Source of the DNA: Nitrospirota bacterium
GTDB lineage: Bacteria > Nitrospirota > Nitrospiria > Nitrospirales > Nitrospiraceae
Reading direction: 5' to 3'
Length of the DNA: 24,171 bases
Assembly (NCBI GenBank): GCA_031409835.1
Contig: JANNXZ010000309.1
Coordinates: 1 to 24,171 of the forward strand
Both the position numbers and the translations under genes were made by a program. The notes below the pieces were generated by a model, which was given only the letters and a program-made list of their open reading frames with translations, was not told the origin of the DNA and did no database searches. Shown in pieces: positions 2,377-23,405 of this stretch (its first letter is position 1; each line of letters starts with the position of its first letter).

Positions 2377-2477
2377 GCGAGACTGGCGGGACGCAAGGGT
2401 CTATCTGGTTCATCTGGTCTATCTAGTCTGTCTGGTTCAAGCAAACAAGACAAACCATCCGTTCTCGCCCGTCCGGC
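2377..2477. repeat. Nested periodic repeat: GC-rich nonamer arms around a GTCTATCTG-type nonamer array
   Basis: Left arm GCGAGACTG GCGGGACGC (2377-2394). Core GTCTATCTG GTTCATCTG GTCTATCTA GTCTGTCTG (2399-2434). Right arm reverse complement GCCGGACGG GCGAGAACG (2460-2477). Confidence 0.8.
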
Positions 2478-2488
2478 GCTAGCTCCTC

Positions 2489-2518
2489 TTGTGCTAGCTG
2501 GCGGCTACCGTTTATTAT
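2489..2518 (+). promoter_or_regulatory. Possible sigma70 promoter for fumC
   Basis: TTGTGC-N18-TATTAT, 42 nt upstream of the ATG. Confidence 0.3.
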
Positions 2519-2560
2519 GGCGCCCGCACCACCTAGCCCCCTCACCCCGGAGTAGTATCC

Positions 2561-3997
2561 ATGAAGAAACCAGTGACTCAGTCATCACCGACGACCAGAG
2601 TTGAACGCGATACGATGGGCGAGCTGGCCGTGCCGGCCACGGCCTATTATGGTGTGCAAACCGCTCGCGCGATTGAAAACTTCCCAATCAGCTCGCTGCG
2701 ATTCCCCCGCGCCATGATCCGGGCGATGGGAATGATCAAACGCGCTGCTGCAACGGTCAATCAGTCGCTGGGTCTCCTCGACAAGAAACCAGCGGATGCA
2801 ATCAACCAAGCCGCGACCGAAGTGGTCGAGGGAGCGCTCGATGCCGAATTTCCTGTGGACATTTTTCAAACCGGCTCAGGCACCTCGACGAACATGAACA
2901 CCAACGAGGTGATCTCCAACCGCGCCACTGAGCTGTTAGGCGGAGCACGGGGCAGCAAGCTGGTGCATCCCAACGATCACGTCAATCTGGGCCAATCCAG
3001 CAACGACGTGATTCCTACAGCGATTCATATTGCCGCCGGGGAGATGATGCAGCAACAACTCATTCCGGCGCTCACCTGCTTGCAGAAAGCGCTCGCTCGG
3101 AAAGCCAAAGAGTTCGACAAGATCGTCAAGATCGGGCGCACCCATTTACAGGATGCGACGCCTGTTCGATTGGGGCAGGAGTTCGGCGGGTATGCGAGGC
3201 AGATTGAACTCGGCATTCAACGGGTCAAGCGAGCGCAGGATGCCCTTAGTGAAGTCGCACTCGGCGGCACCGCAGTCGGCACAGGGCTTAACTGCCATCC
3301 GAAGTTCTCCACCAAGGTGATGGCCATCGTGTCGAAAGAGACCGGCTGCAAGTTCATAGAAGCGAAGAACCACTTTGAAGCGCAGTCCACACAGGATTCG
3401 TTGGTCGAAGCGAGCGGAGAACTGAAGACCATTGCCGTGAGCCTCATGAAGATTGCCAACGATATTCGCTGGCTCGGTTCCGGCCCTCGCTGCGGGCTCG
3501 GGGAGATTAATTTGCCGGAGACACAGCCAGGCTCGTCCATCATGCCGGGGAAAGTAAACCCGGTCATTGCCGAATCGGTGACGATGGTCTGCGCGCAGGT
3601 GATCGGCAACGATGTGACCGTCACAGTGGGCGGGCAGGCGGCCAACTTCGAACTGATCGTCATGATGCCGGTGATGGCCTATAACCTCTTGCAATCCATT
3701 GAACTCCTCTCGACAGCCTCGGCCAACTTCGCAGTCAAGTGTATCGACGGCATCAAAGCCAACGAGGAACGTTGCAGAAGCTTGATCGAGGAAAGTCTGG
3801 CCATGTGCACTGCCCTGGCGCCAGAGATCGGGTACGAAGCTGCCGCCAAACTCGCCAAGGACGCCCATAAGTCAGGCAAGACCGTGCGCCAGATGGCCAA
3901 GGAACAAAAAGTCCTCTCAGAAAAGCGCCTCACCGAACTGCTCGACCCCTGGCGCATGACCGAACCAGGTGGGCCGGTGGGAAGTGCAGGGGGGTAG
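2561..3997 (+). CDS. fumC: Class II fumarate hydratase
   Basis: Motifs QTGSGTSTNMN, SSNDVIPTAIH, GRTHLQDATP and GSSIMPGKVNP; GGAG RBS. Confidence 0.93.
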   Translation: MKKPVTQSSPTTRVERDTMGELAVPATAYYGVQTARAIENFPISSLRFPRAMIRAMGMIKRAAATVNQSLGLLDKKPADAINQAATEVVEGALDAEFPVDIFQTGSGTSTNMNTNEVISNRATELLGGARGSKLVHPNDHVNLGQSSNDVIPTAIHIAAGEMMQQQLIPALTCLQKALARKAKEFDKIVKIGRTHLQDATPVRLGQEFGGYARQIELGIQRVKRAQDALSEVALGGTAVGTGLNCHPKFSTKVMAIVSKETGCKFIEAKNHFEAQSTQDSLVEASGELKTIAVSLMKIANDIRWLGSGPRCGLGEINLPETQPGSSIMPGKVNPVIAESVTMVCAQVIGNDVTVTVGGQAANFELIVMMPVMAYNLLQSIELLSTASANFAVKCIDGIKANEERCRSLIEESLAMCTALAPEIGYEAAAKLAKDAHKSGKTVRQMAKEQKVLSEKRLTELLDPWRMTEPGGPVGSAGG

Positions 3998-4044
3998 GCT
4001 AGGAGTAAAAGGGCTATGGGGGTAGCGGGATAATAGAGGGGTAA

Positions 4045-4080
4045 GGGACTGGCTCCGCCGTCTGCGGCGGTGCCTGTCCC
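4045..4080. repeat. REP-like GC-rich hairpin
   Basis: GGGACTGGCTCCGCCG-TCTG-CGGCGGTGCCTGTCCC. 14 of 16 stem positions pair; the two mismatches are T.T (4050/4075 and 4054/4071). Confidence 0.75.
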
Positions 4081-4093
4081 ACTTCTCAGGTGG

Positions 4094-4121
4094 CGCTTCA
4101 CGCTTCACGAACGACGCTTCA
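4094..4121. repeat. Heptamer tandem array (CGCTTCA), same family as 623-694 in the opposite orientation
   Basis: CGCTTCA CGCTTCA CGAACGA CGCTTCA; the reverse complement contains CGTGAAG CGTGAAG. Confidence 0.7.
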
Positions 4122-4136
4122 GGCACACAAGCCGCT

Positions 4137-4166
4137 TTGACACCACAAAACCCCCTATGTTAAAGT
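4137..4166 (+). promoter_or_regulatory. Sigma70-type promoter for the oxidoreductase
   Basis: TTGACA-N18-TAAAGT with a TG extended -10 element. Confidence 0.55.
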
Positions 4167-4223
4167 CCGCGGAACTGTTGAGGTTCTAGGCACTATTCAC
4201 TCACTCTCCCCAGGGAACAACGC

Positions 4224-5582
4224 ATGAGCGATCAAGGCAAGCATGTGATTATTGTGGCCGGCGCTGGACCGGCTGGAATGGCCGTGGCGAGTTCACTCGC
4301 GAAGGCAGGCCATGAAATTGTTATCCTGAATCGGGACATTAAGTTCGGCGGGTTGGCTGAGTATGGGATTTTCCCCGCAAAGCTTAAGCTGCGCGGCGGT
4401 CTCAGGAAGCAGTACTGGGAGTTGCTTGAGCGACCGAACGTCCACTATTTCGGCAATGTCTCAATCGGCAACGGTAAAGATCTTACCGTCGAAGAGATCA
4501 GAAACCTTGGCGCCAGCGCCGTCGTATTCTCTATTGGCGCGCAAGGGACTAAGGCCATTGGCGTGGAAGGGGATTCAGCCAAGGGCGTGTTCCATGCGAA
4601 GGATGTCGTATACCACTTTAATCGGTTACCCGGATTCGGCGATCGCCCATTTGAAATGGGTCAGCATGTGGCCGTGATCGGCGCCGGCGATGTGATGGTC
4701 GATATCGCGCATTGGTTGGTCCGCTATAAGAAGGTTGAGCGGGTCACCGCGATCGTGCGGCGTGGGCCAGTCGAGCGAAAGTACAATCCGAAAGAAATTC
4801 GCATGGTGTGCGCCAACATGGATGTGGACGGGATTGCCAATGAGGTCGCTCGGATTAAGGATCGCCTTGCCGCGGTCGGCCAGAATGCAGACGAAGTACT
4901 CAAGGGTCTGACGGACGAGTTTACAAAGTGTGAACCAACAGTCAGCGAGACGAAGATGGGTTTCAAGTTTTTGGCCTCTCCAAAACGCATCCTAGTGGAT
5001 GAGAACAATCGGGTTCGTGGCCTGGAGATGGAAGACAACAAGCTCGATCCAAAAGGTGAGGATACGGTCGCCGTCGGACTGAAACAGTATTATGAATTCC
5101 CTTGCGACTCTGTGGTCTTTGCCGTCGGCGACAAAGTCGATGAGACCGTTGGGTTACCATATAAGAGTGGTCTGTTCGTCACGAATCCCAACAAGACCGG
5201 CAACGATCCGGACGACGCGCTTTTCCAAGCTTATGACGAAACTGCAGGCAAGATTATGGATGGTGTGTTTCTCGCTGGGTGGGCACGGAAGGCAAGCGAG
5301 GGCTTAGTCGGCATTGCTAAACGGGACGGGGATTGGTGCGCAGAAGTTGTCAGCAAATACCTTTCGACGAAAACATCAGACAGCCAATCTGACATCAAAG
5401 TCGTCCTCGGCGAGCTAGCCGCAACTCTCACGGCGCATAAGAGTCACCCGGTCGATCTGGCGGGGCTTCGGACGCTTGAGGCGAGTGAGAAAAGTCACTG
5501 GAGTGAGAAAGAGTGTATCGGGGAGTTTAAATTTACGAGCAACCAGGAAATGATTGAGTTGATCGAGCGCGGGAAGACATAA
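4224..5582 (+). CDS. FAD/NAD(P)-binding oxidoreductase, probably a ferredoxin-NADP+ reductase of the adrenodoxin-reductase/FprA type
   Basis: N-terminal GAGPAG FAD motif, GGLAEYGI, a second Rossmann motif GAGDVMVDIA and a C-terminal AGWARKASEG(L)VG. No Fe-S cysteine cluster seen. Confidence 0.75.
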   Translation: MSDQGKHVIIVAGAGPAGMAVASSLAKAGHEIVILNRDIKFGGLAEYGIFPAKLKLRGGLRKQYWELLERPNVHYFGNVSIGNGKDLTVEEIRNLGASAVVFSIGAQGTKAIGVEGDSAKGVFHAKDVVYHFNRLPGFGDRPFEMGQHVAVIGAGDVMVDIAHWLVRYKKVERVTAIVRRGPVERKYNPKEIRMVCANMDVDGIANEVARIKDRLAAVGQNADEVLKGLTDEFTKCEPTVSETKMGFKFLASPKRILVDENNRVRGLEMEDNKLDPKGEDTVAVGLKQYYEFPCDSVVFAVGDKVDETVGLPYKSGLFVTNPNKTGNDPDDALFQAYDETAGKIMDGVFLAGWARKASEGLVGIAKRDGDWCAEVVSKYLSTKTSDSQSDIKVVLGELAATLTAHKSHPVDLAGLRTLEASEKSHWSEKECIGEFKFTSNQEMIELIERGKT

Positions 5583-5600
5583 CCAGCAGGCCCTTCGTTT

Positions 5601-6461
5601 CTATCCATCCCCCCATTTGAGCTTTTCTCTCAGCACGTCATAGTAATTGCTCTCTGGAAACCGGATCAATCTGGTCCGGTGCTCCGAGGTCTGGATCATA
5701 ATCGTGTCTCCCTGCGTGATTGCCACTCCCATCTGTCCATCGAGCGTCGCCATGGCGCCGTCATCTTTACTGGTGAGCGTCACATCAATCTTCACATTAC
5801 CCGGCACGATCAATGGCCGATGCGTCAGCGTATGAGGGCTAATCGACGTCAGAATCAATGACTGGACAGCCGGATCGATAATGGGGCCTCCGGCTGAAAG
5901 AGAATAGGCGGTGGATCCCGTCGGGCTGCTGACAATCAGCCCATCGCCGCGCAAGTTGGTCACGAATCGTCCTTGAATCGCAATCTTGAGTTCGATCATG
6001 TGGGCCAGCGTGCCCTTGCCGATGACGACATCGTTCAACACCACTCCTTGCGCAACCGTCTCTCCATGCCGAAGTATATTTGTCCGTAGCATGAGCCGCT
6101 CATCGAGGACGAAGTCATTTGCAAATACCCGTTCGAGCGAGGGAAATAGATTTTCCAGGCGCACCTCAGTCAAAAAGCCGAGCCCACCCATGTTGACGCC
6201 GAGGATGGGAATGCCTCGCTCAGCGGCAAGTCGCGCAGCATTGAGCATGGTTCCGTCGCCGCCCAAAACCAGAAGTACGTCCGCTTTGCTCGCCAGTTGA
6301 GCGTTCTGATACCCCCCCTGTTCACCGAGAAGCATCGCCGCCGTCTGATCTAAAATCACATCGATGCTTCGAGCCCGGAGCCAGGCGATGACATCTTGCA
6401 GCGTACTCTTGATCTCAGGAAACTTAGGCTTTGCCAGAATCCCGATACTTTTGCTTTTCAT
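5601..6461 (-). CDS. nadK: NAD kinase
   Basis: Motifs LGGDGTML, GVNMGGLGFL, LND and SPTGSTAYSLSAGGP. Confidence 0.96.
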   Translation of the reverse strand: MKSKSIGILAKPKFPEIKSTLQDVIAWLRARSIDVILDQTAAMLLGEQGGYQNAQLASKADVLLVLGGDGTMLNAARLAAERGIPILGVNMGGLGFLTEVRLENLFPSLERVFANDFVLDERLMLRTNILRHGETVAQGVVLNDVVIGKGTLAHMIELKIAIQGRFVTNLRGDGLIVSSPTGSTAYSLSAGGPIIDPAVQSLILTSISPHTLTHRPLIVPGNVKIDVTLTSKDDGAMATLDGQMGVAITQGDTIMIQTSEHRTRLIRFPESNYYDVLREKLKWGDG

Positions 6462-6512
6462 GCGGTGAAACTCTGTTGTCGTTCCATCGAGAGGTTAGAG
6501 AAAATGTGCGCA

Positions 6513-6542
6513 ATTGTATCGGGTGGGTTATTTTGAAGTCAA
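6513..6542 (-). promoter_or_regulatory. Sigma70-type promoter for nadK
   Basis: TTGACT-N18-TACAAT on the minus strand, back-to-back with the clpC promoter. Confidence 0.55.
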
Positions 6543-6622
6543 CGAATCAGAAGGCGACAGACCTTCACCGATATGTATTTCGTCCACTCCAAACTCTTGG
6601 CTTGTGCGATTGTCTCGTAGTC

Positions 6623-6651
6623 TTGACACTTAAAATCCTTCTAGCTAGAAT
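6623..6651 (+). promoter_or_regulatory. Near-consensus sigma70 promoter for clpC
   Basis: TTGACA-N17-TAGAAT. Confidence 0.75.
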
Positions 6652-6718
6652 TAGCTCAGATTTTTCGAGAACTTTGCGTACATGAACCGGTCATAGGCTG
6701 CATCTAAAAGGAGGCAGG

Positions 6719-9145
6719 ATGTTCGAAAGATTTACGGATAAGGGCAGGAAGATCATTATCCTCGCACGGGAAGAGGCTGAACGTCATCAGAACGACTACC
6801 TCGGGACCGAGCATCTTGTCTTGGCCATTCTCCGTGAATCCGACGGGATTGCCTTGATGATCTTGAAAAAAATGGGACTTTCGACTGAACAAGTCCGTTT
6901 GGAGATTGAACGGAATTTGCCTGGCGGGGGAACCACCATGACCTTTGGTGAGATCCCATTCAGCCCGCGGGTCAAGAAGGTCATCGAATACGGGGTCGAA
7001 GAAGCCCGTCTCCTTGGACATAATCATATTGGTAGTGAGCATCTCTTATTGGGCCTCCTCCGAGAAGAGGAGGGGATCGGCGGAAAGATTCTCCGCAGCT
7101 TAGGCGCCAATCTCCTCACTGCCAGACAATTGACCGTGACATTCTTACGGAAATCTGCCCCGCGTGAGCGGGACCGGAAGAGTAATACCCCAGCACTTGA
7201 TGAATTCGGTCGCGATCTGACCCAGCTTGCCCAGGCGGGGCAACTGGATCCTGTCATCGGTCGAGCCGACGAAATCGAGCGGGTGCTTCAGATCCTGAGC
7301 CGCCGCTCAAAAAACAATCCCGTGCTCATCGGGGAAGCCGGGGTCGGCAAGACTGCCATTGTTGAAGGTCTTGCCCAACGAATTATCCAGTCTGAAGTGC
7401 CGGATAACCTTCTCTCGCGACGTGTCATTGCACTCGACCTCGGCTCATTGGTCGCGGGCACGAAATATCGGGGCCAATTCGAAGAACGGCTGAAGGTCGT
7501 GATGAAGGAAATCGTCCAGGCCGGGAACATCATCATTTTCATCGATGAACTCCATACTTTGGTGGGTGCAGGGGCGGCGGAAGGATCGATCGATGCCTCC
7601 AACATGCTCAAGCCCGCACTATCGCGTGGAGAAATTCAATGTATCGGTGCCACGACTCTCGATGAGTATCGAAAGCATATTGAGAAGGATGGAGCCCTCA
7701 AGCGACGGTTTCAGCCGATCCACGTCCAGCCGCCGAGCATGGATGAAACAGTGCTGATTATCCAAGGGCTTCGCGATCGGTATGAAGAACATCATGGGGT
7801 CGAGATTTCAGAAGAGGCCATCCTCGAAGCGGTTAAGCTGTCCGATCGATACATTAGCGATCGGTTCCTACCGGACAAGGCCATCGATTTGATCGATGAG
7901 ACTGGGTCGCGGGCAAAATTGCAGGCGTATGCACTGCCGTCGGACTTGAAGGCCATGGAGCAAGAGCTGAAAAAAGTCTCTCGCGACAAGGAACTGGCTA
8001 TTTCGATGCAGAACTTCGAGGAGGCTGTTCGCCATCGCGAGGAAGAAGAACGTCTGCGAAAACTCCTCGATGAATCCAAGCGTGAGTGGAAGAAGAACCA
8101 GGAAAAAAATAAACCGACGATTGGGAAAGAAGAGGTCGCCTATGTCGTCTCCAAAATGACAGGCATTCCACTCTTCAAGCTTGAGGAAGAAGAATCGAAC
8201 AAGCTGCTTCGTATGGAGGAATTCCTCCATAAACGCGTGATTGGGCAGAATGAGGCAATCTCCGCTGTGGCCCGAGCCATTCGGCGGTCACGTGCCGGCC
8301 TGAAAGAAGCGAAGAAGCCCATCGGGTCTTTTATTTTTCTAGGACCAACTGGGGTCGGGAAAACTGAGCTAGCAAGGACATTAGCGGAGTTCCTCTTCAA
8401 TAGTGAAGACTCGCTCATTCGGATCGACATGTCCGAATATCAGGAAAAGTTCACCAGTTCACGGCTCTTCGGCGCCCCTCCTGGGTACGTGGGGTATGAA
8501 GAAGGTGGCCAATTGACTGAGCGGGTTCGGCGCCGGCCCTATTCCGTGGTCCTGTTCGACGAAATCGAAAAGGCCCATCCCGATGTGTTCAATATTTTGC
8601 TGCAAGTATTGGACGACGGGGTGCTGACCGACAGTCTCGGACGCAAAGTGGACTTCAAGAATTGTGTCATTATCATGACCTCCAATATCGGGACGAAGAT
8701 GATTCAGAAGGGGGTTTCGCTCGGATTCCAGAACACGGAAGGCGATCAAGAGCGCCACAAAAAGGAAGAAGTATTAGGAGAATTGCGCCGCTCGTTCAGC
8801 CCGGAATTCCTCAACCGGATCGACGAAATCGTGGTTTTCCACCAGTTGGACAAAACACATCTCACCAATATTCTCGACATCCTTTTGAGTGAACTCAACC
8901 TCCGTCTGCTCGACAAGGGTGTGGAGATCGAGGTCGAGGATGACGTCAAACAGTGGCTGATCAAAGAAGGCTATCAACCGCTTTACGGCGCCAGACCGAT
9001 GCGCCGAACGATTCAGCGAGCGATTGGCGATCCTCTCTCCGAAGAGATGATTAGAGGACGATTCAAGGAATGCCGAAAGATCCGGGTGGTGCTTCGAGAC
9101 GGCGCTCCGGCATTCATTGAGCAGGAGGCGATGGCTGGCGTCTAG
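6719..9145 (+). CDS. clpC: ATP-dependent Clp protease ATP-binding subunit ClpC
   Basis: Double Clp-N repeat (GTEH/GSEH), two Walker A motifs ([16 protein letters not shown]), a short UVR-type middle coiled coil and an LGF ClpP-docking loop. 808 aa, AGGAGG RBS. Confidence 0.95.
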
Positions 9146-9186
9146 TATCTTAGCCTAGCGCCTGCGCGACGCCATTGCATAGAGTA

Positions 9187-9227
9187 GACACGGCCCTTGT
9201 GGCGCCAACGGCCACAGGGGCCGTGTC
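9187..9227 (+). terminator. Strong hairpin after clpC, candidate intrinsic terminator
   Basis: GACACGGCCCTTGTGGC-GCCAACG-GCCACAGGGGCCGTGTC: a 17-bp stem with one G.U pair, followed only by a pyrimidine-rich tail (ATTTCTCCTCTT), not a clean U run. Confidence 0.5.
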
Positions 9228-9296
9228 ATTTCTCCTCTTCTGAGTAACGCATTTATCGCTGCCCCAGTTCGTATGATCGGGAAGCATTGTATGGTG

Positions 9297-10355
9297 ATGA
9301 CGACCGTTGAACAGCCTACCGTAGCCTGGATACCGGGGCCCATCCTTGGTATCGAGACATCATGCGATGAAACGGCCGCGTCGGTGCTTGCCGCAGACGG
9401 CTCCGTCCTTTCGAATATTATTGCATCGCAGCATGCGGTTCATCGACGATTCGGAGGCGTCGTTCCCGAACTCGCTTCTCGTGCCCACATTGAATCGATT
9501 GAAGACGTTTCATCTGAGGCACTGCAACAAGCCGGTCTCGCATGGGTGGATCTCACGGGAATCGCCGTCACCCAAGGACCAGGCTTGGTGGGCGCTCTGC
9601 TCGTCGGAGTCAACTATGCAAAGTCACTGGCCTATGCCTTGAACATTCCGATGGTTGGTGTCAGTCATCTTGAGGGCCACATCGCCTCCGCTTGGCTGAA
9701 GGATCCAGCATTTCCGTTGCCCTGTGTGGTCCTGGTTGTTTCGGGTGGCCATACCCATCTTTACTATAAGGAGAGAGGCGGTCACTGCAAGCTCCTTGGA
9801 GCTACCAGAGACGATGCGGCAGGGGAGGCATTTGACAAAGGAGCTCAGCTGCTTGGGCTGGAGTATCCTGGGGGACCAGCCATTGATCGCTTGGCTAGAC
9901 AGGGAAACCCAGGGGCCATTGCATTTCCCCGTTCGTATCTACAAAAGGGGAGTCTTAACTTCAGTTTCAGTGGATTGAAAACGGCCTTGCTATACAGACT
10001 TCAAGCGATAGATGAGAAATCATGTGCGGCGCAAGCTGCTGACTTGGCGGCAGGTTATCAGGAGGCCATCGTGGACGTGCTGGTCAAAAAGTCCTTTGCC
10101 GCTGTTCGGTCATCCGGCGCTCGTGCGCTGGCCGTTGTCGGAGGGGTGTCCGCCAATTCTCGATTACGTGCGCTACTCCAGCAACGAGCAGCATCCGAGA
10201 ACCTGCAGCTCAGTCTTCCCCCGCTGGCGTACTGTACCGATAATGCCGCGATGATCGCCGCCGCAGGGAGGCAGGCGCTTCGCGCGGGGCTCCGGGCACC
10301 CCTAGCCATCGACGCACAAGCCTCAATGGTGTCATCGTTCGCACATACGCTCTAA
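9297..10355 (+). CDS. tsaD: tRNA N6-adenosine threonylcarbamoyltransferase
   Basis: Motifs LGIETSCDET, GGVVPELASR, HLEGH, VSGGHT, DDAAGEAFDK and CTDNAAMI. Start uncertain (9273, 9291 or 9297). Confidence 0.96.
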   Translation: MTTVEQPTVAWIPGPILGIETSCDETAASVLAADGSVLSNIIASQHAVHRRFGGVVPELASRAHIESIEDVSSEALQQAGLAWVDLTGIAVTQGPGLVGALLVGVNYAKSLAYALNIPMVGVSHLEGHIASAWLKDPAFPLPCVVLVVSGGHTHLYYKERGGHCKLLGATRDDAAGEAFDKGAQLLGLEYPGGPAIDRLARQGNPGAIAFPRSYLQKGSLNFSFSGLKTALLYRLQAIDEKSCAAQAADLAAGYQEAIVDVLVKKSFAAVRSSGARALAVVGGVSANSRLRALLQQRAASENLQLSLPPLAYCTDNAAMIAAAGRQALRAGLRAPLAIDAQASMVSSFAHTL

Positions 10356-10381
10356 CCGACGACGACAAGGAAACGACGCCC

Positions 10382-12070: not shown

Positions 12071-12104
12071 CCCGCTGCACAATTGGCCCATTCTGGCACC
12101 ATCC

Positions 12105-14349: not shown

Positions 14350-14369
14350 CCTAAAGGAGTACCGCGTCC

Positions 14370-14726
14370 ATGATCGACATGTTGAGACTCTTGCCCCAAT
14401 ACACAACAGGCGAATTTGACTCGCGCCACCGGCTGGCGATCATCACAGCCCAGCGAGCAAAGCATATTGTCCAGGGATCGCGCCATGCCACTTCACGCTT
14501 CACTAAAGAAGCGGCTATTGCTCTTGAGGAGGTCCTTCAGGGGAAAATCACATACCTCGTCGGCCAAGAAGCGCGGGATGCCATGAAGGAGGCGAAGCGC
14601 GGCAAGGAAGGCGAAATGGAACGCATCGCCTTGATGACCGGCGACGATGCGAAGGAGATCAAAAAAGAACTGAGCGTCTATGTCGACGATTCCCCGAAGC
14701 CGGTGGTGGCTAAGAGCGAGGAGTAA
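14370..14726 (+). CDS. rpoZ: RNA polymerase omega subunit with a C-terminal extension
   Basis: SRHRLAIITAQRAK...IALEEV omega pattern, in the canonical gmk-rpoZ-coaBC order. Confidence 0.85.
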   Translation: MIDMLRLLPQYTTGEFDSRHRLAIITAQRAKHIVQGSRHATSRFTKEAAIALEEVLQGKITYLVGQEARDAMKEAKRGKEGEMERIALMTGDDAKEIKKELSVYVDDSPKPVVAKSEE

Positions 14727-14738
14727 AAGGAGTCATCG

Positions 14739-16004
14739 GTGACGATCTCCGATTCCAGTGGGCCGACGTTGGTCGGGAAGCAGATCGTGCTTGGCGTGAC
14801 CGGCAGCATTGCGGCCTATAAGGCGGTTGCATTGCTCCGGACCTTGCTCCGCGAAGGAGCGGTGGTGCACGTCGTGATGACGCAATCGGCCACGAAATTT
14901 GTCACCCCGCTGACATTTGAAGTGCTCTCCGGCCATCCAGTCTCGACGGATGTGTTCGAGGCGCATCAGGAGATGAAACACTTGTCGTTGCCTGCACAGG
15001 CAGATGTCATTGTCATTGCGCCTGCCACGGCCAATTGTCTTGCAAAGGCCGCATTGGGGTTGGGCGACGATCTCCTCTCGACCATGCTTCTTTCAGCAGA
15101 GTGCCCGTTGATTGTGGCCCCTGCTATGGATGGAGGAATGTGGATGCATCCATCTGTCCGAGAACATGTAGGGACGCTGTGTGCGAGGGGAACGATCGTG
15201 GTGAAGCCAGAAGTAGGCCCACTCGCTTCCGGACAGGTCGGCCAAGGGCGCTTGGCCGGGGAAGGCGCAATTCTGGAGGCGATTCAGGCGGCGCTGGGAC
15301 CACAGCGCGATTGGCAAGGGCAGCGTATGCTCGTATCGGCGGGTCCGACACAAGAGCCGATCGATCCGGTACGTTTCATTTCCAATCGCTCCTCCGGCAA
15401 AATGGGCTATGCCATTGCCGAAGCCGCCCAGGCAAGGGGAGCCCAGGTGGTCCTCGTCACTGGGCCAACAGCGCTACCGGCTCCGAGAGGCGTCGAGATC
15501 GTTTCGGTAGCCACGGCTGAAGAAATGTTGAAGGCCTTGTTTGCGCGCCTTGCTTGGTCCACCACTGTTATTATGGCCGCCGCCGTGGCGGATTTTCGTC
15601 CCACGCACCCTGCCATGCAAAAAATAAAGAAACAAGGGCGAACCGCCCAGACGCTCGATCTCGAACGAACCACTGACATTCTGGCATCCTTATCCGCTCA
15701 ACGGACCACGCAACTGATGGTTGGCTTTGCTGCTGAGACCAACGATCTGATCGCCCATGCGAAAGACAAGCTGAAAGCGAAAGGGCTCGACCTCATTGTC
15801 GCCAACGATGTCACGATGGAAGGAGCGGGATTCGGCAGCGATCAGAACGCAGCCGTATTGATCGACCGGCAGGGGGGCATGACAGAATTGTCTTTGATGT
15901 CAAAACGAGCACTCGCCGATGCGATTTTGAATCGGGCTCACGCATTGCTACACACCAGACAATCAACCCAGGCCCCGAAGCCGGCTAATATGGGAAGAGG
16001 CTAG
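14739..16004 (+). CDS. coaBC: Bifunctional phosphopantothenoylcysteine decarboxylase/phosphopantothenate-cysteine ligase
   Basis: Motifs GVTGSIAAYK, APAM, GPTQEPIDPVRFISNRSSGKMG and GFAAET. GTG start with AGGAG RBS. Confidence 0.96.
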   Translation: MTISDSSGPTLVGKQIVLGVTGSIAAYKAVALLRTLLREGAVVHVVMTQSATKFVTPLTFEVLSGHPVSTDVFEAHQEMKHLSLPAQADVIVIAPATANCLAKAALGLGDDLLSTMLLSAECPLIVAPAMDGGMWMHPSVREHVGTLCARGTIVVKPEVGPLASGQVGQGRLAGEGAILEAIQAALGPQRDWQGQRMLVSAGPTQEPIDPVRFISNRSSGKMGYAIAEAAQARGAQVVLVTGPTALPAPRGVEIVSVATAEEMLKALFARLAWSTTVIMAAAVADFRPTHPAMQKIKKQGRTAQTLDLERTTDILASLSAQRTTQLMVGFAAETNDLIAHAKDKLKAKGLDLIVANDVTMEGAGFGSDQNAAVLIDRQGGMTELSLMSKRALADAILNRAHALLHTRQSTQAPKPANMGRG

Positions 16005-16010
16005 CAGCCG

Positions 16011-16847
16011 ATGGCTCAGGATCAGCACGCCGCCGAGAGCGCCTTGGAGATCGATCGACTGGCTACCCAGTTGGCCAAAGATCCACACTCGAAGGTCTTT
16101 ATGCCCTTGGCCGAAGAATATGGGAAAGTCGGTATGTGGCAGGAAGCCGCAGGTGTCCTTGAAGATGGCCTGAAACTGTATCCCGGCTTCATTACCGCCA
16201 TGGTCGCGCTCGGGCGTGCATACGACCAGATGGGTCAGTCCACGATGGCCAGGGCCATTCTGGAAGAATCCGTCAAGTTGAGCCCTGAAAACCTGCGCGC
16301 GCACCGAACCTTGATCAAGATTTACCAGAGCCAGGGGCTGAACGAGTCGGCACTGCAATCCTGTGCCGTTATCCTCACGGTCAACCCACGTGATGAAGAA
16401 GCGCGCTCAGTTCAGGCTGTTTTAGGCGGACCGCTGAAACACAGGAAGGAACCGGAGCGGCCAAAACTGGCGGCTCCAGTCATCGACGATCTTTCCGTCC
16501 AAACGGCAAATGCATTGTCCGATCCTGCCGAGCTCACAGTCTCTGCCGCAAAGACGAGTGCAGTGCCAGACCTAACTATCTCAACAGTGGATGAATCGAA
16601 GAGCGCGTCTGTCGAGCCTATGAGTGTGCAAACGTTTCTTATGGAAACCGGCCTCTCCCCACAGGATCGGATAGGGGAGCACCCTAGGGTCGCGGAGTCG
16701 GATTCCCACGCCGCTGACACTGTGGAGATGCCTCCTTCATCGCCTCATGCTGAAGTTGTCACACAGCTGGAATCATGGCTTCGCAGCATCGAATCACGTC
16801 GTCACGATCGTGACACAACGAACGAGCCACACTCCAAGGTTTCTTAA
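16011..16847 (+). CDS. Tetratricopeptide-repeat protein
   Basis: N-terminal helical TPR-like repeats (LAEEY..., ALGRAY..., HRTLIKIY), a low-complexity linker and a short C-terminal helix (LESWLRSIESRR). Confidence 0.8.
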   Translation: MAQDQHAAESALEIDRLATQLAKDPHSKVFMPLAEEYGKVGMWQEAAGVLEDGLKLYPGFITAMVALGRAYDQMGQSTMARAILEESVKLSPENLRAHRTLIKIYQSQGLNESALQSCAVILTVNPRDEEARSVQAVLGGPLKHRKEPERPKLAAPVIDDLSVQTANALSDPAELTVSAAKTSAVPDLTISTVDESKSASVEPMSVQTFLMETGLSPQDRIGEHPRVAESDSHAADTVEMPPSSPHAEVVTQLESWLRSIESRRHDRDTTNEPHSKVS

Positions 16848-16861
16848 TACTTTTCACAGGT

Positions 16862-16890
16862 TTGACCGGTCTGAGGCGGACTGCTACAAT
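16862..16890 (+). promoter_or_regulatory. Sigma70 promoter for aroQ-efp-accB-accC
   Basis: TTGACC-N17-TACAAT with a TG extended -10 element. Confidence 0.7.
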
Positions 16891-16953
16891 GCCGCCGTGC
16901 TGGACCCCGTCACGTTGAATCATTCTCGTGTACCCAGTATGTAGTGGGAAGAC

Positions 16954-17454
16954 ATGCTACGAATTCGAGTCTTACACGGTCCAAATCTCAATCTTCTCGG
17001 GAGCAGGGAACAGTCGATATACGGCACCCTGTCCCTCGACGCCATGAATTCAACCATCGTGAAGTTGGCGGAGGAGCTGGCCATGAAGGTGGACCTGCGC
17101 CAGTCGAATAGCGAGGGTGAACTCGTTACCTGGATTCAAGAGACTCGGACGGGATACGATGGGATCATCATTAACCCTGCCGCGTACACACACACCAGCG
17201 TCGCAATTCGGGATGCCATTGCGGCGGTCGGTCTGCCGACCGTTGAAGTGCATCTGTCCAATATTTATCAGCGGGAAGAATTTCGTCACCGGTCCTATGT
17301 CTCAGGAGTCGCAATCGGACAAATTTCAGGATTAGGCCCGACCGGCTATCTTCTTGCGCTTCGTGGGCTGCACGACTATCTGACCACATCCAGACGCCAG
17401 AAGAAGATTTCTGCACCGGCGCCATCGCGACGAGCGGCAAAAGGAACGCGATAA
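16954..17454 (+). CDS. aroQ: Type II 3-dehydroquinate dehydratase
   Basis: Motifs [26 protein letters not shown] and EVHLSN. Confidence 0.96.
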
Positions 17455-17502
17455 TTGCAGCGCCGGCCCAACGACCGGCTTACAGTTTGAAGGGAGTATC
17501 GA

Positions 17503-18063
17503 GTGATTTCCACAACCGATTTTCGCGGTGGTGTGCGCCTCATGGTGGACAACCAGCCTTTTTATATCGTTGAGTTTCAGCATGTAAAACCCGGCAAAGG
17601 CGGAGCCTTCGTACGCACCAAGCTCAAGAGCTATCTTTCCGGTAATGTGCTAGATCGCACCTTCCGATCCGGTGAACGGTTCGAGGAGCCTGATCTCGAA
17701 GAACGGACCATGCAATTCCTCTATGCAACCGACGACGCCTATACCTTTATGGACACGGAGACCTTTGAGCAACTGACGTTTGAAAAGGGCAAGCTCGGCG
17801 GAAATGCGGACCTCTTGAAAGAAGACATGACGGTGAAAATCCTCGTGTATGAGCATCGCCCCATCGACGTCGAGCTGCCCAACTTCATCGAACTGAAAGT
17901 CAGCGATACCGAGCCAGGTTATCGTGGCGACACCGCCACGGGCGGCACCAAGCTTGCGACCCTTGAAACAGGCGCCACCATCAAGGTTCCGCTCTATATG
18001 GAAACAGGGACCGTCATTAGGATCGATACCCGCACACGAGAATATGTGGAGCGAGTTCGGTGA
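17503..18063 (+). CDS. efp: Elongation factor P
   Basis: [14 protein letters not shown] loop and PG.RGDTA..GTK.ATLETG. GTG start with GGGAG RBS. Confidence 0.97.
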
Positions 18064-18632
18064 GCAAGCGAACATCAAGTAAGCCAAAGAAGGGAGGGAG
18101 ACCGATTATCCTCCCACAAGCCTTTCCCGCAACCCAAAGCGGGCAGGGGACACCCTTACTGTCTGGACCACAGACCAAGCAGGTCCAAGAACTGATTGAT
18201 TTGCTCAAGAAGAACAACCTGACCGAAATGGAGTTGGAGTGGGAAGGCCTCAGAATTCGCGTGCGGCATGAAACCGGGCCGAGAACGATTACGGCTGCGG
18301 TTTCTGAGCAGGGGACGACTGTCTCAACCTCCATCGCGCAACTGCCTGCCGCAACAGGCACACAGACCGAAGATACGTCAGGCATGATCACCATCGCGTC
18401 CCCGATCGTCGGGACGTTCTACCGCTCCCCCTCGCCGGACGCCGACCCCTATGTTGAAGAAGGCGATTATGTAAAAAAGGGACAGGTCCTGTGCATTGTC
18501 GAAGCGATGAAGTTGATGAACGAAATCGAATCGGAGGTGGATGGTCGGGTCATGAAAATTCTGGCCGAAAGCACCAAGCCGGTAGAATATGGCCAAGCGC
18601 TCTTCCTCGTCGATCCGACAGCCACAGCTTAA
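18060..18632 (+). CDS. accB: Acetyl-CoA carboxylase biotin carboxyl carrier protein
   Basis: SPIVGTFY, biotin site EAMKLMN and [12 protein letters not shown] overlap with the efp stop. Confidence 0.95.
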
Positions 18633-18665
18633 TCCTCTTCCCTAGACCCACATCGGAGCATTTGC

Positions 18666-20006
18666 GTGTTCAAGAAAGTATTGATAGCCAATCGCGGTGA
18701 GATCGCGCTCCGCGTCATTCGGGCCTGTAAGGAACTCGGCATTAAGACCGTGGCGATCTTTTCCGAGGCCGATGCAGCAAGCCTTCATGTGCGCGCAGCC
18801 GACGAGAAGATCTGCGTTGGACCTCCCGACGCGGCGCTCAGCTACAGAAATATTCCCAACGTCCTGAGCGCGGCGGAGATCACCGGGGCGGACGCCATCC
18901 ATCCTGGCTATGGGTTCCTTTCCGAGAACGCCCACTTCGCTGAAGTGTGCGAGTCCATCGGCGTCAAATTTATCGGTCCTACGTCCGAACATATCGCCCT
19001 CTTGGGCGACAAGTCCAAAGCGCGAGAAATTGTCGCCCGCCGTGGTTTACCCGTCACGCCAGGCAGCCCCGGTGAGTTGAAGAGCGAACAAGCAGCCTTC
19101 GATGCCGCAGCCAAGGTCGGCTATCCCGTGATCATTAAAGCTTCGGCCGGTGGGGGAGGACGCGGCATGCGCGTCGTCAACAAAGCCGAAGACCTCGCTC
19201 GTGCATTTCAAGCCGCGCAAGCGGAGGCGAAGACCACGTTCGGCAACGATGCCGTCTATCTTGAACGATATTTTCTCGAGCCCCGCCATATCGAAGTGCA
19301 GATCATCGCCGATCATCGTGGGCATGTCGTGCATCTCGGCGAGCGCGACTGTTCCATCCAACGCCGGCATCAGAAACTGCTCGAAGAAACCCCTTCGCCT
19401 GCTGTCGACGAAAAACTCCGCCGGGAAATCTGCCGTGTGGCTGTCGAAGCCGTGAAAGCCGTGCATTACCGGAATGTCGGGACCGTCGAGTTCTTGCTCG
19501 ACAAGGACCACAACTTCTTCTTCATGGAAGTGAACACCCGCATCCAGGTGGAGCACGCCATCACCGAAATGGTGACCGGCATCGATCTCATCAAGGAACA
19601 AATCAGGCTCGCCGACGGGCAGTCCCTCTCGTTCAAACAGCAAGACATCAAGCTCAGCGGACACAGCCTCGAATGCCGCATCAACGCGGAAGACCCGGAA
19701 AAGTTTACTCCCTGTCCAGGTATGATCACTAAATACAGCGCGCCAGGCGGATTCGGTGTACGTGTCGATTCGGCGATGGAATCGAACATGATGGTCGTTC
19801 CGTTCTACGATTCCATGATCGCCAAGATCATCACCCATGGCCGGGACCGGCAGGAATCTATCGCCCGCATGCGCCGTGCCCTCGACGAATTCGTGATCGA
19901 AGGCATCAAGACGACCATTCCGCTGCACAAACGCATTCTCAACGACCCCGACTTCCAAAAGGGCCACGTTTCGACCACCTTCCTCGAACGCTTCCTCGCC
20001 AGTTAA
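18666..20006 (+). CDS. accC: Acetyl-CoA carboxylase biotin carboxylase subunit
   Basis: Motifs [35 protein letters not shown] and [13 protein letters not shown] start. Confidence 0.97.
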
Positions 20007-20011
20007 CTCAC

Positions 20012-20140
20012 GCAAGACGGGCGAGAAAGGTGCGACAGGCGCGACTCGAAGGCTAACGTTCGGGGTTCGAAGTTCCAAACACTTCAGTCTTCAGACCGCT
20101 TCGCCTGCCCCACCCTTCACGCAAGTCCCGCTCCTCGCGC
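20012..20140. repeat. Nested periodic inverted repeat: GC-rich nonamer arms around a heptamer core
   Basis: Left arm GCAAGACGG GCGAGAAAG GTGCGACAG GCGCGACTC (20012-20047). Core GTTCGGG GTTCGAA GTTCCAA..ACTTCAG TCTTCAG (20058-20094). Right arm reverse complement GCGCGAGGA GCGGGACTT GCGTGAAGG GTGGGGCAG GCGAAGCGG (20140-20096). Confidence 0.8.
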
Positions 20141-20345
20141 TGATCGTACCCCACATTGAGATGCGTGATTCAAGTAAGAACTCAGCGCAGAAGCGCGAAT
20201 CAACCATCGACTGTGGGAGAAGAGGGAAATCGATTCGTCAAGCCACAAAATATAGGGGCGCAATTGGGCAGGACACAATGCCTACTTCTTAGGCAAACCG
20301 CTGCGAGGTCTCTCAGCGTAGGTCATTTCCATCGAGACAACCCCC

Positions 20346-20380
20346 TCATCCACAGAGTTACCCACAGAAGCTGTGGAGCA
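20346..20380. promoter_or_regulatory. Cluster of DnaA-box-like nonamers
   Basis: TCATCCACA (20346-54) and TTACCCACA (20358-66) each match TTATCCACA at 8/9. An inverted TGTGGAGCA (20372-80) matches at 7/9. Confidence 0.5.
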
Positions 20381-20434
20381 GAATCTTTGCAAAAAAAAAG
20401 AAAGCGATTGAGACAGATGGAACGGGCAGGACTA

Positions 20435-20500
20435 GTTGATCTAGCTGATCTTGATTTTGGTATATCTAGTTGATTTAGCGTAACCAAGCACACGAGACAG
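20435..20500. repeat. Degenerate nonamer array, possibly of the GTCTATCTG family
   Basis: GTTGATCTA GCTGATCTT ... GTATATCTA GTTGATTTA, followed by an A/C-rich counter-arm (AACCAAGCACACGAGACAGAC). Confidence 0.45.
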
Positions 20501-20566
20501 ACGCAATATCGGTCGTCTTCTGATTGGGAGCGAGGTCAGCATCCTGTGAGAGGGGATTGACATACG

Positions 20567-20812
20567 CTACTTCGTCGATTTTTCAGATCCCTTTTCCGTG
20601 ATTTTCTTGACCGCATTTCCAATCGCAGACCCGATTTTGGGAATCTCCTTCTCGACATTGTTGGCCGCGCTCTTCAGCCCTCGTCCAAGATCGTCTACGG
20701 TGATGCCTTTGCCATCCCCTGGCTTAGGATTGTCGGCAGCGGTCGATAAGGCTGCTATCTGTGTGAGCCCCACGACCAAAATGGCCGCGACGATGATGAC
20801 CGTTCTGTGCAT
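20567..20812 (-). CDS. Small secreted hypothetical protein (81 aa)
   Basis: ATG 20812 with AGGAGG RBS; signal-peptide-like MHRTVIIVAAILVVGLTQIAALSTA followed by a Lys-rich helical segment. The track start at 20959 is probably too far upstream. Confidence 0.8.
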   Translation of the reverse strand: MHRTVIIVAAILVVGLTQIAALSTAADNPKPGDGKGITVDDLGRGLKSAANNVEKEIPKIGSAIGNAVKKITEKGSEKSTK

Positions 20813-21027
20813 GAGACACCTCCTGTTGGACAAACTATACCATGAAGATGCGAAAACGTTGTCCTTCGCTTCTTTGGTTCCTGTGGTTCCATGACCGAAA
20901 GAAATCAGCTCAACCGGGGAAATCGAATCACCTGTGTCCCCTGACGTCTCACCATGCATATCCCTGAAAGGCGACGTGCTTTCTCGCGGGGAAAGGGGTA
21001 TTCTTCCGCGGCCCCCACAACAACACT

Positions 21028-22386
21028 ATGCAGGCCACACCTCGCTTAATCCCGCTCCCGCTCTACACACAAGTGCTCATCGCTGTGGCCTGTGGCATGT
21101 TGCTGGGAGTGGTCTTTGGCCAAGAGCCCTATCTGGGTGGCCTAAAGAACGAGCATCTGGGCTGGCTTGGTTTGCTGCTCGTCACGCTGCTCAAGACCCT
21201 CGCCATCCCGCTCATCTTTTTTGCGATTCTTGATGCGCTCATCCGCACTAGCCTCCCGCTACGTCAGGGGACCAAGCTGCTCTTCATCTGCCTCATCAAC
21301 GTCTCCGTAGCCATGACAATCGGCCTCGTCATCATGAACACCTGGCAGCCGGGTCTCGCCTGGTTGGGCCACGTCGATGAATTGCTGAACGTCGTGCCAA
21401 GTCCCAAGCCATCGGCAGGCGCCTCCGCAACAGTGCAGACCGGGACGCAGAGTCCGATCGAATACCTCGCGTCCTACATTCCACGCACCATCATGTCGCC
21501 GTTTTCGACCGGCAACATCATTGGAGTGGTCTTCCTCGCCCTCTGCATCGGCGCCACGCTTCGCCGCCTGCATGGCAATACGGCGAAGGGTCGTGGAGTC
21601 ATTCATACCCTCGTACGATTCATTGAGCACGGCTATTACTGGCTCGTGCAGATCCTCGGATGGATCATCCTCGCGGTACCGCTCGCCGTGTTTGGCGTCG
21701 TCGCGCAGGTCGTTGGCAAAGCGGGCATCGGCGTCTTCGCCGTCCTCTGGATCTTCCTCGTCACCATGCTCGTCGGACTCGCCATCCACTCGCTTGGTTA
21801 CTACCCACTCGTCGCCTGGCTGATAGGGAAAAAGTCGCCGAAGGTCTATATCGGGCAGGGGGCCGACGCGATCATGACCGCCGTGTCATGCAACAGCAGT
21901 CTCGCCGCTGTGCCGGTCACCCTCCGGTGTCTCGATCGCATGCAGGTCTCGCCTCAATCGGCTCGCCTCGCCGCCTGTGTCGGCACCAATCTCAACAACG
22001 ACGGCATCACCCTCTATGAAGCGATGGCCGCGCTCTTTCTCGCCCAAGCGCTGGGCTTCGACCTATCAATGGGCAGTCAGGTATTGATCGTCGCCGCGTC
22101 GATGATCGCGGGGGCCGGCGTGGCCGGCATTCCGGAAGCCGGGATGATCGTGTTGCCGCTCGTCCTCTCCGCTGCCGGCTTGCCGCCTCACGTCATCGGT
22201 GCGGCCATTCCACTCATCATGACCGTGGACTGGATCATCGCCCGAGCCCGCTCTGGCGTCAACGTCCTAAGCGACATGCTCGTCGCCATCCTCCTCGATG
22301 TAGGGCGTATCACACCCGCCACCGAACTCATCGCGCTTCAGTCCCAATCCGAAGTCACCAATCCCACAGAGCCCCAGCCATCCTGA
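21028..22386 (+). CDS. Dicarboxylate/amino acid:cation symporter (DAACS, GltP/DctA family)
   Basis: Multiple TM helices, NSSLAAVPVT (HP1), NNDGITLYEA (TM7), GIPEAG (HP2) and DWIIARARSGVNVLSD (TM8). Confidence 0.9.
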   Translation: MQATPRLIPLPLYTQVLIAVACGMLLGVVFGQEPYLGGLKNEHLGWLGLLLVTLLKTLAIPLIFFAILDALIRTSLPLRQGTKLLFICLINVSVAMTIGLVIMNTWQPGLAWLGHVDELLNVVPSPKPSAGASATVQTGTQSPIEYLASYIPRTIMSPFSTGNIIGVVFLALCIGATLRRLHGNTAKGRGVIHTLVRFIEHGYYWLVQILGWIILAVPLAVFGVVAQVVGKAGIGVFAVLWIFLVTMLVGLAIHSLGYYPLVAWLIGKKSPKVYIGQGADAIMTAVSCNSSLAAVPVTLRCLDRMQVSPQSARLAACVGTNLNNDGITLYEAMAALFLAQALGFDLSMGSQVLIVAASMIAGAGVAGIPEAGMIVLPLVLSAAGLPPHVIGAAIPLIMTVDWIIARARSGVNVLSDMLVAILLDVGRITPATELIALQSQSEVTNPTEPQPS

Positions 22387-22396
22387 AGAAAGGGAT

Positions 22397-22484
22397 GGTC
22401 TATCTGGTCTGTCTGGTTCATTTGGTTGGTGTGGTTGGTTTTCCGATCCAGCCAACAAGACAGACCAGACAAACCAGATAGACC
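22397..22484. repeat. Long palindrome built from GTCTATCTG-type nonamers
   Basis: Left arm GGTCTATCTGGTCTGTCTGGT (22397-22417) matches the reverse complement of 22464-22484 (GGTCTATCTGGTTTGTCTGGT) at 20/21. Confidence 0.85.
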
Positions 22485-22536
22485 GTCGCTTGTGAGTCCT
22501 GGACATTCAGAGGCATCCCGCGTAGATTTTCACGCC

Positions 22537-23163
22537 GTGGCCCCCACTCCTCCAAAACACTTCTCGATGATCCGCGAGTTTCACTTGGCCGACTTCCTGA
22601 CACTGGCCAACGCCGCGAGCGGCCTTGGGGCGGTGTTGTTCAGCATGCTGTACATGGGCAGCCAGTCGCCGGGGTATTTCTTCGCCGCCACGGCCATGAC
22701 GCCGGCGGCGCTGGTCTTCGACTGGCTCGATGGCCGTGTCGCTCGATGGCGGCGCATGCATTCGGCGCTCGGGCGCGAGTTGGATTCGCTGGCAGACATC
22801 ATTTCGTTCGGGGTCGCTCCAGCAGCACTCGCATTCGCCGCGGGCATGCGCGGAGGGTGGGACTGGATCGTGCTGATCTATTTCGTCTGCTGCGGGGTTA
22901 GCCGACTAGCCCGGTACAACGTGACCGCCGAGAATCTCTCCGAGGGCGCGGATAAGGTGGTCTACTTCGAAGGCACCCCCATTCCCACGACCATGCTGTT
23001 GACCGGCGTGTTAGCCTTCGCCGCCTGGCAGGACAGACTGGGCGAGAATCTGTATTGGGGCGCATGGACACTGGGACCTTGCGATCTGCATCCGTTATCC
23101 TTGCTGTTCGTCCTATCCGGCACCTTGATGGTCAGCAAAACACTACACATTCCAAAAATGTAA
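22537..23163 (+). CDS. pssA: CDP-alcohol phosphatidyltransferase (phosphatidylserine synthase-like)
   Basis: Signature DWLDGRVAR-x8-G-x3-D-x3-D, with FGVAPA, RLARYN and FEGTPIPT. Start uncertain (GTG 22537 or ATG 22567). The track start at 22426 lies inside the repeat. Confidence 0.82.
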   Translation: MAPTPPKHFSMIREFHLADFLTLANAASGLGAVLFSMLYMGSQSPGYFFAATAMTPAALVFDWLDGRVARWRRMHSALGRELDSLADIISFGVAPAALAFAAGMRGGWDWIVLIYFVCCGVSRLARYNVTAENLSEGADKVVYFEGTPIPTTMLLTGVLAFAAWQDRLGENLYWGAWTLGPCDLHPLSLLFVLSGTLMVSKTLHIPKM

Positions 23164-23325
23164 GAAGGGTAGCCTGGTTGTCCTCTTTGCGCGTGGAACA
23201 GAGGAGGGGATGGAGCCTGATGATCTTCTGTGCTCGCGCAACGTGCGGTCGAAGACTCCCCTCGTTGAACGCGCGCAGTGGAAGATCAATCAGCCCCCAT
23301 CCCTGAAGAGAGAACGAGCAAGTAT
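23164..23325. mobile_element. Putative MITE/REP-like non-autonomous palindromic element
   Basis: Imperfect inverted arms GGGATGGAGCCTGATGATCTTC (23207-23228) and GAAGATCAATCAGCCCCCATCCC (23281-23303) enclose inner GCGCAACG/CGTTGAACGCGC arms. The boundaries and mobility are inferred. Confidence 0.45.
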
Positions 23326-23351
23326 ATGATTTTCCTTCCTGGCTCATCCCA

Positions 23352-23405
23352 TCGCCCCGCCACTCTCGCCATTCGCGCGTTTTCCGCCCGTCGCGCTTGT
23401 CTCGC
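23352..23405 (-). repeat. Six tandem degenerate GC-rich nonamers (solo arm)
   Basis: Minus strand: GCGAGACAA GCGCGACGG GCGGAAAAC GCGCGAATG GCGAGAGTG GCGGGGCGA. Every unit starts with GCG at an exact 9-bp period. Confidence 0.85.

Follow-up and report, generated by a model that had tools for sequence, protein, structure and literature searches.

The window analysed here is the entire contig JANNXZ010000309.1 (C309; 24,171 bases) of a Nitrospirota bacterium, whose metagenome-assembled genome (coded G000) comprises 2.1 Mb on 422 contigs, with 56% G+C, a completeness of 89% and a coding share of 82%. It carries the citrate synthase gene gltA (Citrate_synt, 1238-2371) and the biotin carboxylase gene accC (18666-20006), both gene names from an earlier note on this DNA being backed by Pfam; the accC protein is 96-97% identical to its counterparts in uncultured Nitrospiraceae and Nitrospirota genomes. 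Shortly behind the stop codons of both genes, and at a third locus downstream, lie arrays of a degenerate GC-rich nonamer. These arrays are copies of a dispersed, two-armed repeat family that is confined to part of the Nitrospiraceae, and in relatives the same kind of arm is linked to a cassette encoding a four-helix-bundle protein. The three loci are composed as follows:

2377-2394, + strand: gltA element, left (G-rich) arm made of 2 GC-nonamer units; 5 nt separate it from the gltA stop (2371)
2398-2457, no strand assigned: gltA element, inner module nested inside the GC-nonamer arms; an AT-rich nonamer hairpin built of GGTYTRTYT units, whose right arm is decayed from about 2442 on
2460-2477, - strand: gltA element, right (C-rich) arm made of 2 GC-nonamer units
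20012-20047, + strand: accC element, left arm made of 4 GC-nonamer units; 5 nt separate it from the accC stop (20006)
20048-20096, no strand assigned: inner module of the accC element, a heptamer (GTTCGRR-type) hairpin core with paralogous cores in G000 contigs C363, C392, C19 and C268
about 20097-20140, - strand: accC element, right arm of GC-nonamers, with 3 good units (20114-20140) and a further 2 that are degenerate
23352-23405, - strand: solo C-rich GC-nonamer arm; 6 units, each ending in CGC

Direct reading revealed GCG-N-GA(C) units in strict 9-base phase at all three loci, as the earlier note had proposed. When two phased units were searched for with at most one mismatch, the window yielded 14 matches, compared with 4.16 ± 2.18 in shuffled sequence and with a count of 14 reached in none of 100 shuffles; 12 of these 14 matches fall inside the three loci. 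The 12-mer at 2462-2473 is indeed the exact reverse complement of 20016-20027, and the match extends to 20 nt at 85%. Two other details of the earlier description required correction. Counting five units in the right accC arm was generous, as three are good and two degenerate, and the spacing of 5 nt after the stop codon, although exact for both two-armed elements of the window, is no rule of the genome, in which distances of 0-14 nt are common; the exact agreement is a coincidence within that range. For the solo arm, which is separate from a neighbouring 155-nt repeat, no recognizable partner was found on the expected side. Searches against Rfam returned no match for the window at gathering score and none for positions 23100-23560 at E up to 1.

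Genome-wide, the repeats on whose further occurrence the earlier note had staked its proposal proved abundant. Phased arrays of at least four GC-nonamer units number 57 in G000, compared with 0-3 in five dinucleotide shuffles. Arms most often comprise four units (exactly four in 49 of 57), and within each unit five or six positions are conserved and the others vary. Sequence periodicity in G000 is in excess at lags of 9 nt (109 windows) and 7 nt (74 windows) relative to other lags (0-9 windows). The excess stems from an AT-rich nonamer family (GGTYTRTYT) and several heptamer families, of which the genome holds at least four. All 20 close GC-nonamer pairs are convergent, with the G-rich arm 5' and the C-rich arm 3', and the G-rich arm likewise lies 5' in 98 of 98 pairs over six periodic hairpin families of G000, on both strands. 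Spacers within pairs range from 8 to 78 nt. Seemingly solo arms mostly have a short degenerate partner, with 26 motifs found on the expected side and 3 on the other. A possible exception to the polarity is a gene-bearing cassette with TCAGC units in a relative (locus L134), which seems reversed.

Most two-armed copies fold better than their shuffles, with z of -3 to -6, and those of the window fold weakly on the + strand (z about -1). The arms are nevertheless not a co-evolving hairpin. At variable positions, GC-nonamer arms are no more complementary to their own partners than to the arms of other elements (0.431 versus 0.469 ± 0.025), and the same holds for AT-nonamer arms (0.635 versus 0.629 ± 0.014). 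As real partners match no better than shuffled ones, both a fold-back origin and selected pairing were rejected. Reversing the AT-nonamer unit yields nearly the same pattern, which makes a reversed-pattern control invalid for this family. Selection at the RNA level was rejected as well, since sense and antisense folds and G-U counts show no difference (26 versus 18, p = 0.38). Together, the lack of co-variation between arms and the absence of a strand or G-U bias disfavour a classical selected RNA hairpin. Canonical intrinsic terminators were discarded on the basis that T-tracts are few, being present after 19 of 213 arm ends (9%, with a background of 2.6%), and G-quadruplexes on the basis that the G3+N1-7 x4 motif is present in only 2 of 57 arms.

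With respect to genes, 46 of the 57 arrays in G000 are intergenic, and 47% of elements are found at most 15 nt from a stop codon, compared with 22 ± 4% for random placement in the same gap. The enrichment at gene 3' ends anticipated by the earlier note is therefore present. Convergent gaps are favoured and divergent gaps disfavoured. Gene positions in G000 come from a simple open reading frame (ORF) and codon-score caller, for which distances to stops are exact for called ORFs and distances to starts are unreliable.

The earlier note had further argued that the units do not stem from simple slippage but suggest a propagated element or a protein-bound array. Propagation is supported: distinct subfamilies share arms of about 36 nt, loops and even flanks across many loci, and near-identical 33-nt arms or 33-mers recur at unrelated loci and in other species. 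Slippage does contribute, however, as orthologues differ by whole 9-nt units, and the family thus behaves as a proliferating repeat whose unit number is altered by slippage. A comparison of empty and filled sites, also suggested in the earlier note, was informative at both genes. The orthologous gltA 3' end is empty in two relatives (G033 and G040), in which the stop abuts the promoter-like TTGACT box of the next gene, and is filled in eight genomes with four module combinations, namely GC- plus AT-nonamers, AT-nonamers alone, GC-nonamers with a heptamer core, and a heptamer hairpin of unrelated sequence. Among copies of the gltA element with a clearly orthologous right boundary, the left arm varies between 0 and 4 units, and the nesting order of the window copy (AT-nonamers inside GC-nonamers) recurs in G037, G041 and G048. 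Similarly, the closest relatives, whose accC proteins are 96-97% identical, have other fillings at the accC site.

Strict four-unit arrays were found in 18 of 18 sampled congeners, with 1-58 copies each, and a further sample widened this range to 0-101. The richest genome, G041, carries 101 strict arrays at a completeness of 99%. Within the Nitrospiraceae, strict GC-nonamer arrays occur in 13 of 39 genera; elsewhere in the phylum (165 Nitrospirota genomes), sparse matches were seen in 3, partly representing simple tandem repeats. The dedicated targeting or recombination mechanism envisaged in the earlier note gained no support, as neither a dedicated recombinase nor a target-site duplication was found; at the filled and empty gltA sites, where the copies are old, no consistent duplication was seen. 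Nor do the transposases that the note had named among genes to look for between paired arms, of the REP-associated tyrosine transposase (RAYT; REP, repetitive extragenic palindrome) or HUH type, track the repeats in a PF01797 survey. RAYT was rejected as a mobilizer: of 41 genomes in the genus, just 20 have PF01797, and it is absent from G000, G004, G008, G010, G018 and G041, all carriers of 24-101 arrays.

A different gene emerged from the search for small cargo ORFs that the earlier note had recommended: in relatives, GC-nonamer arms frame a gene for an Avd-like four-helix-bundle protein (PF05635/TIGR02436). The protein matches TIGR02436 and PDB 2GSC (Xanthomonas campestris XCC0516, deposited with five chains). 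Ten other genomes of the genus contain 25 PF05635 genes, of which 15 (60%) are framed by inverted arrays of the same unit, compared with 9 of 1477 ordinary genes (0.6%). G000 itself encodes three PF05635 proteins, each gene lying beside different arrays (AT-nonamer, GAAGGCT heptamer and GTGATGN heptamer, respectively). In a tree of PF05635 proteins, the clades coincide with the flanking units, the GC-nonamer clade (G004, G010 and G062) having a support of 97/94. The GC-nonamer-framed lineage also occurs in two other genera (G076 and G178), and hence in three genera overall; all five carriers are rich in GC-nonamer repeats, and the other PF05635 lineages are flanked by other 7-9-nt units. Genome G072 has no PF05635 gene and essentially no arrays. 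At a single chromosomal slot, bounded by the conserved motif GTAAGTGAAAGGGCGGAGCTG and a NusG-like gene, four genomes carry the GC-nonamer cassette and two carry an AT-nonamer cassette with a different protein lineage, indicating that gene and arms change together. The cassettes at this slot are:

G000 C32:2570-3200 (locus L129; AT-nonamer lineage), with loci L137 (G010 contig C53; GC-nonamer lineage), L141, L138, L163 and L170: NusG-like slot cassettes, in at least six genomes

A reverse transcriptase was rejected as a partner, as it is absent from several repeat-bearing genomes: RVT_1 is missing from G000, G001 and G072, and is single and unlinked in G041 and G010.

Taken together, we regard the dispersed hairpin family and its link to a gene-plus-arms cassette as demonstrated, and lean, with moderate confidence, towards a reading in which the gene-less copies derive from this cassette or ride on it. 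With a G-rich arm 5' and a C-rich arm 3', either strand is able to form a long imperfect hairpin, in the centre of which other periodic hairpin modules nest. The gene-less hairpins may be miniature derivatives of the cassette or its passengers, the cassette itself appearing similar to ORF-bearing intervening sequences of 23S ribosomal RNA (rRNA). The four-helix protein, predicted to be pentameric by homology, would recognize the tandem units, with roughly one unit per subunit. Copies might persist just past stop codons either because this position is harmless or because a hairpin there is useful for transcript ends or processing. The repeats behind gltA and accC are, in this scheme, probably gene-less miniatures of the four-helix-bundle cassette.

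Several observations weigh against this scheme. Neither the window nor the 89% complete G000 contains a GC-nonamer-linked four-helix gene, and none was found in G041, with its 101 strict arrays and 99% completeness, or in G012. Four of the five GC-nonamer cassettes are clearly located in one orthologous slot, so that the link between gene and arms could partly reflect common descent rather than recognition. In addition, no target-site duplication was seen at the gltA sites, the window's own two-armed copies show the weak + strand folding described above (z about -1), and the simple gene caller makes distances to starts rough. G000 shows no excess of long arm pairs around cargo, and its distant arm pairs have no excess of any orientation; three long arm pairs in G041 were rejected as cargo carriers, because they enclose housekeeping genes (ispF, cysE, lipA and similar).

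In a rival explanation, the repeats would be generic REP-like or terminator-like hairpins without a functional tie to the four-helix gene, spread by host or mobile-element activity and acting as stabilizers of mRNA 3' ends or as terminators. The gene cassette would then be another pile-up site, or an element homing into existing hairpin loops. We consider this explanation unlikely, although it accommodates the crowding at stop codons, the higher frequency in convergent than in divergent gaps, the significant folding of most copies, the existence of repeat-rich genomes without a linked gene (G041, G012 and G000) and the nesting, which shows that hairpin centres are favoured landing sites. Against it stand the framing of 60% of PF05635 genes by same-unit arrays as opposed to 0.6% of ordinary genes, the match of protein clades with unit families, and the joint swap of gene and arms at one slot. 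The absence of biases in sense/antisense stability and G-U content runs contrary to a function at the RNA level, U-tracts follow just 9% of arms, and the lack of co-variation between arms indicates that exact pairing is not under selection. Alternatively, the arrays might be bound by a host factor with a 9-nt periodic motif as its target; candidates are a global regulator, a nucleoid protein, or Rho, which would load on the C-rich arm. Binding of this kind would not require complementary arms and would explain why five or six positions per unit are kept and the rest vary, why four units are the mode and why the solo arm at 23352-23405 consists of six C-rich units, and a precedent is given by the three tandem 8-9-nt units paired on opposite strands in Geobacter (PMC2700814). 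We nevertheless regard a host factor as improbable: an essential regulon would not look like this range of 0-101 copies among congeners, with none in the streamlined G072; the architecture is common to several unrelated unit families; and orthologous sites are empty or occupied by different families.

The arrays could also have arisen in place, through slippage or through the repair of breaks at fragile palindromes and with no mobility involved, an origin compatible with the whole-unit length differences between orthologous copies, with the fixed polarity that points the G-rich strand towards the centre on both strands, and with the independence of the two arms. However, near-identical 33-nt arms and conserved loops at unrelated loci and in different species call for copying of whole elements, leaving this origin very improbable. 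Lowest in our ranking, and largely refuted, are REP doublets forming hairpins (REPINs) moved by a RAYT (Y1 HUH) transposase, or G-quadruplex repeats of the Xanthomonas type. The repeats do resemble these in being extragenic, palindromic and high-copy, and in their four-unit mode (PMC4692102), but PF01797 is found in only 20 of 41 genomes of the genus and is missing from the array carriers G000, G004, G008, G010, G018 and G041 (24-101 arrays), and only 2 of 57 arms carry a canonical G-quadruplex motif.

The earlier note had assigned the repeats to no named class. Paired inverted arrays of 7-9-nt units near stops have, however, been published for Xanthomonas (PMC4692102) and Geobacter (PMC2700814). 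The kind of repeat is thus already on record; its nonamer form is new here, and it provides a testable lead that connects it with Avd-like four-helix-bundle genes. A literature search on Nitrospira repeats found nothing specific. In X. campestris and X. axonopodis, GGGAATC heptamers form paired arrays that prefer four units and are always convergent, each strand bearing a G-rich run (Rehm et al. 2015, PMC4692102), with an excess in intergenic DNA and at distances of up to about 50 bp from stops (PMC4692102). The Nitrospira pairs agree in convergence (20 of 20), in the four-unit mode (49 of 57) and in their proximity to stops (47% within 15 nt), but differ in having a unit of 9 nt rather than 7, in the scarcity of canonical G-quadruplex motifs (2 of 57 arms) and in the presence of full-length subfamilies with conserved loops and nested modules. 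In X. campestris ATCC 33913, the start codon of XCC0516 is overlapped by repeat #15 (GGGAATC x4), which is 6 nt away from bccP (XCC0517) (PMC4692102, supplement file 2), and XCC0516 is the PF05635 four-helix-bundle protein solved as PDB 2GSC; the text searched there does not name the protein's family.

The class 2 'global regulator binding sites' of Geobacter metallireducens are paired sites of the type TCTCCGTS[Y] x3 (Aklujkar et al. 2009, PMC2700814). They share with the Nitrospira arrays the three to five tandem units of 7-9 nt, the opposite-strand pairing at variable spacing (here 8-78 nt), the multicopy and mostly intergenic occurrence, and a C-rich run towards the 3' side of each strand. 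The unit is a different one, however, a link to a four-helix gene is not reported there, and regulator binding is itself a proposal in that system. Intervening sequences (IVSs) of rRNA provide a further parallel. In the 23S rRNA IVS of Coxiella, an S23p ORF lies between terminal inverted repeats, tandem heptamers of variable number adjoin the ORF, and RNase III excises the sequence (Warrier et al. 2016, PMC4990558). As in such IVSs (Coxiella, Leptospira), a PF05635/TIGR02436 gene lies between inverted repeats of like units in G004, G010, G062, G076 and G178, but the Nitrospira cassettes are situated between protein-coding genes instead of in rRNA helices, and the bulk of the family consists of dispersed gene-less copies. 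PF05635 also resembles Avd, the accessory protein of diversity-generating retroelements (PMC10053308). Unlike these retroelements, the Nitrospira cassettes have no adjoining reverse transcriptase and no template/variable repeat pair.

Like REPs, REPINs and MITEs (miniature transposable elements with inverted repeats), the family is short, extragenic, palindromic, multicopy, patchy among relatives and often placed just past stops, and it may descend from a gene-bearing parent. In contrast to all of them, it has arms composed of tandem units in phase, where they have a unique inverted repeat. It furthermore lacks the RAYT association of REPs and REPINs, and, unlike in MITEs, neither a transposase-bearing parent nor a target-site duplication was seen, the sole gene found between GC-nonamer arms being the four-helix-bundle gene, which is not a known transposase. 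The short tandemly repeated repetitive (STRR) heptamers of cyanobacteria, attributed to Mazel et al. in 1990, are reportedly degenerate tandem short units that are intergenic and represented by several families per genome. The Nitrospira family differs in its nonamers, its strict two-armed layout and its phylum.

Beyond the genus, we tentatively raise the possibility, which we consider less likely than not, that PF05635 'IVS proteins' are in general sequence-specific readers of tandem 7-9-nt repeats, with each lineage co-evolving with its own unit. The dispersed short-tandem-repeat hairpins of many phyla, including Nitrospira nonamers and heptamers, Xanthomonas GGGAATC arrays, cyanobacterial STRRs, Geobacter paired sites and rRNA IVSs, would in that case stem from gene-plus-arms cassettes. 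If true, a single mechanism would underlie two long-unexplained features. Reports of short tandem-repeat hairpins behind genes go back decades in cyanobacteria, Xanthomonas and Geobacter, to our knowledge without a mechanism, and we know of no role for four-helix-bundle 'intervening sequence' proteins outside diversity-generating retroelements. The pairing of one protein lineage with one repeat unit, and the joint exchange at one slot, render both puzzles testable at the bench. For the annotation of Nitrospira assemblies, the elements account for variable spacers past stops, contig breaks and spurious ORF starts within hairpins.

The window holds several other repeats, among them a member of the AT-nonamer family:

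22390-22491, no strand assigned: strong AT-nonamer hairpin of a sister family with like architecture and a different unit, 3 nt past the stop of a dicarboxylate symporter gene

This hairpin has a minimum free energy of -64 kcal/mol (z = -8.9). The longest ORF of a CDP-alcohol phosphatidyltransferase gene begins within it (TTG, 22426), and the true start of that gene probably lies downstream of 22491. Directly past the stop of the same gene, positions 23164-23322 are occupied by a dispersed repeat of about 155 nt that folds into a long imperfect hairpin. About 25 copies or fragments of it were found in G000, with no Rfam match, and virtually all genomes of the genus carry many copies, with identities of 87-96% for the best. 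Short heptamer arrays of a similar general kind lie at two further gene ends of the window (674-689, ACCTTTC; 4094-4109, CGCTTCA units). Finally, elsewhere in G000, a conserved motif of about 55 nt ending in ...GATGCCTGACTCAA is located directly 5' of one GC-nonamer subfamily (C32:4411-4465, C236:1528-1582 and C363:4755-4809), and on contig C356 an inverted copy of this motif follows the element, adding a third level of nesting.

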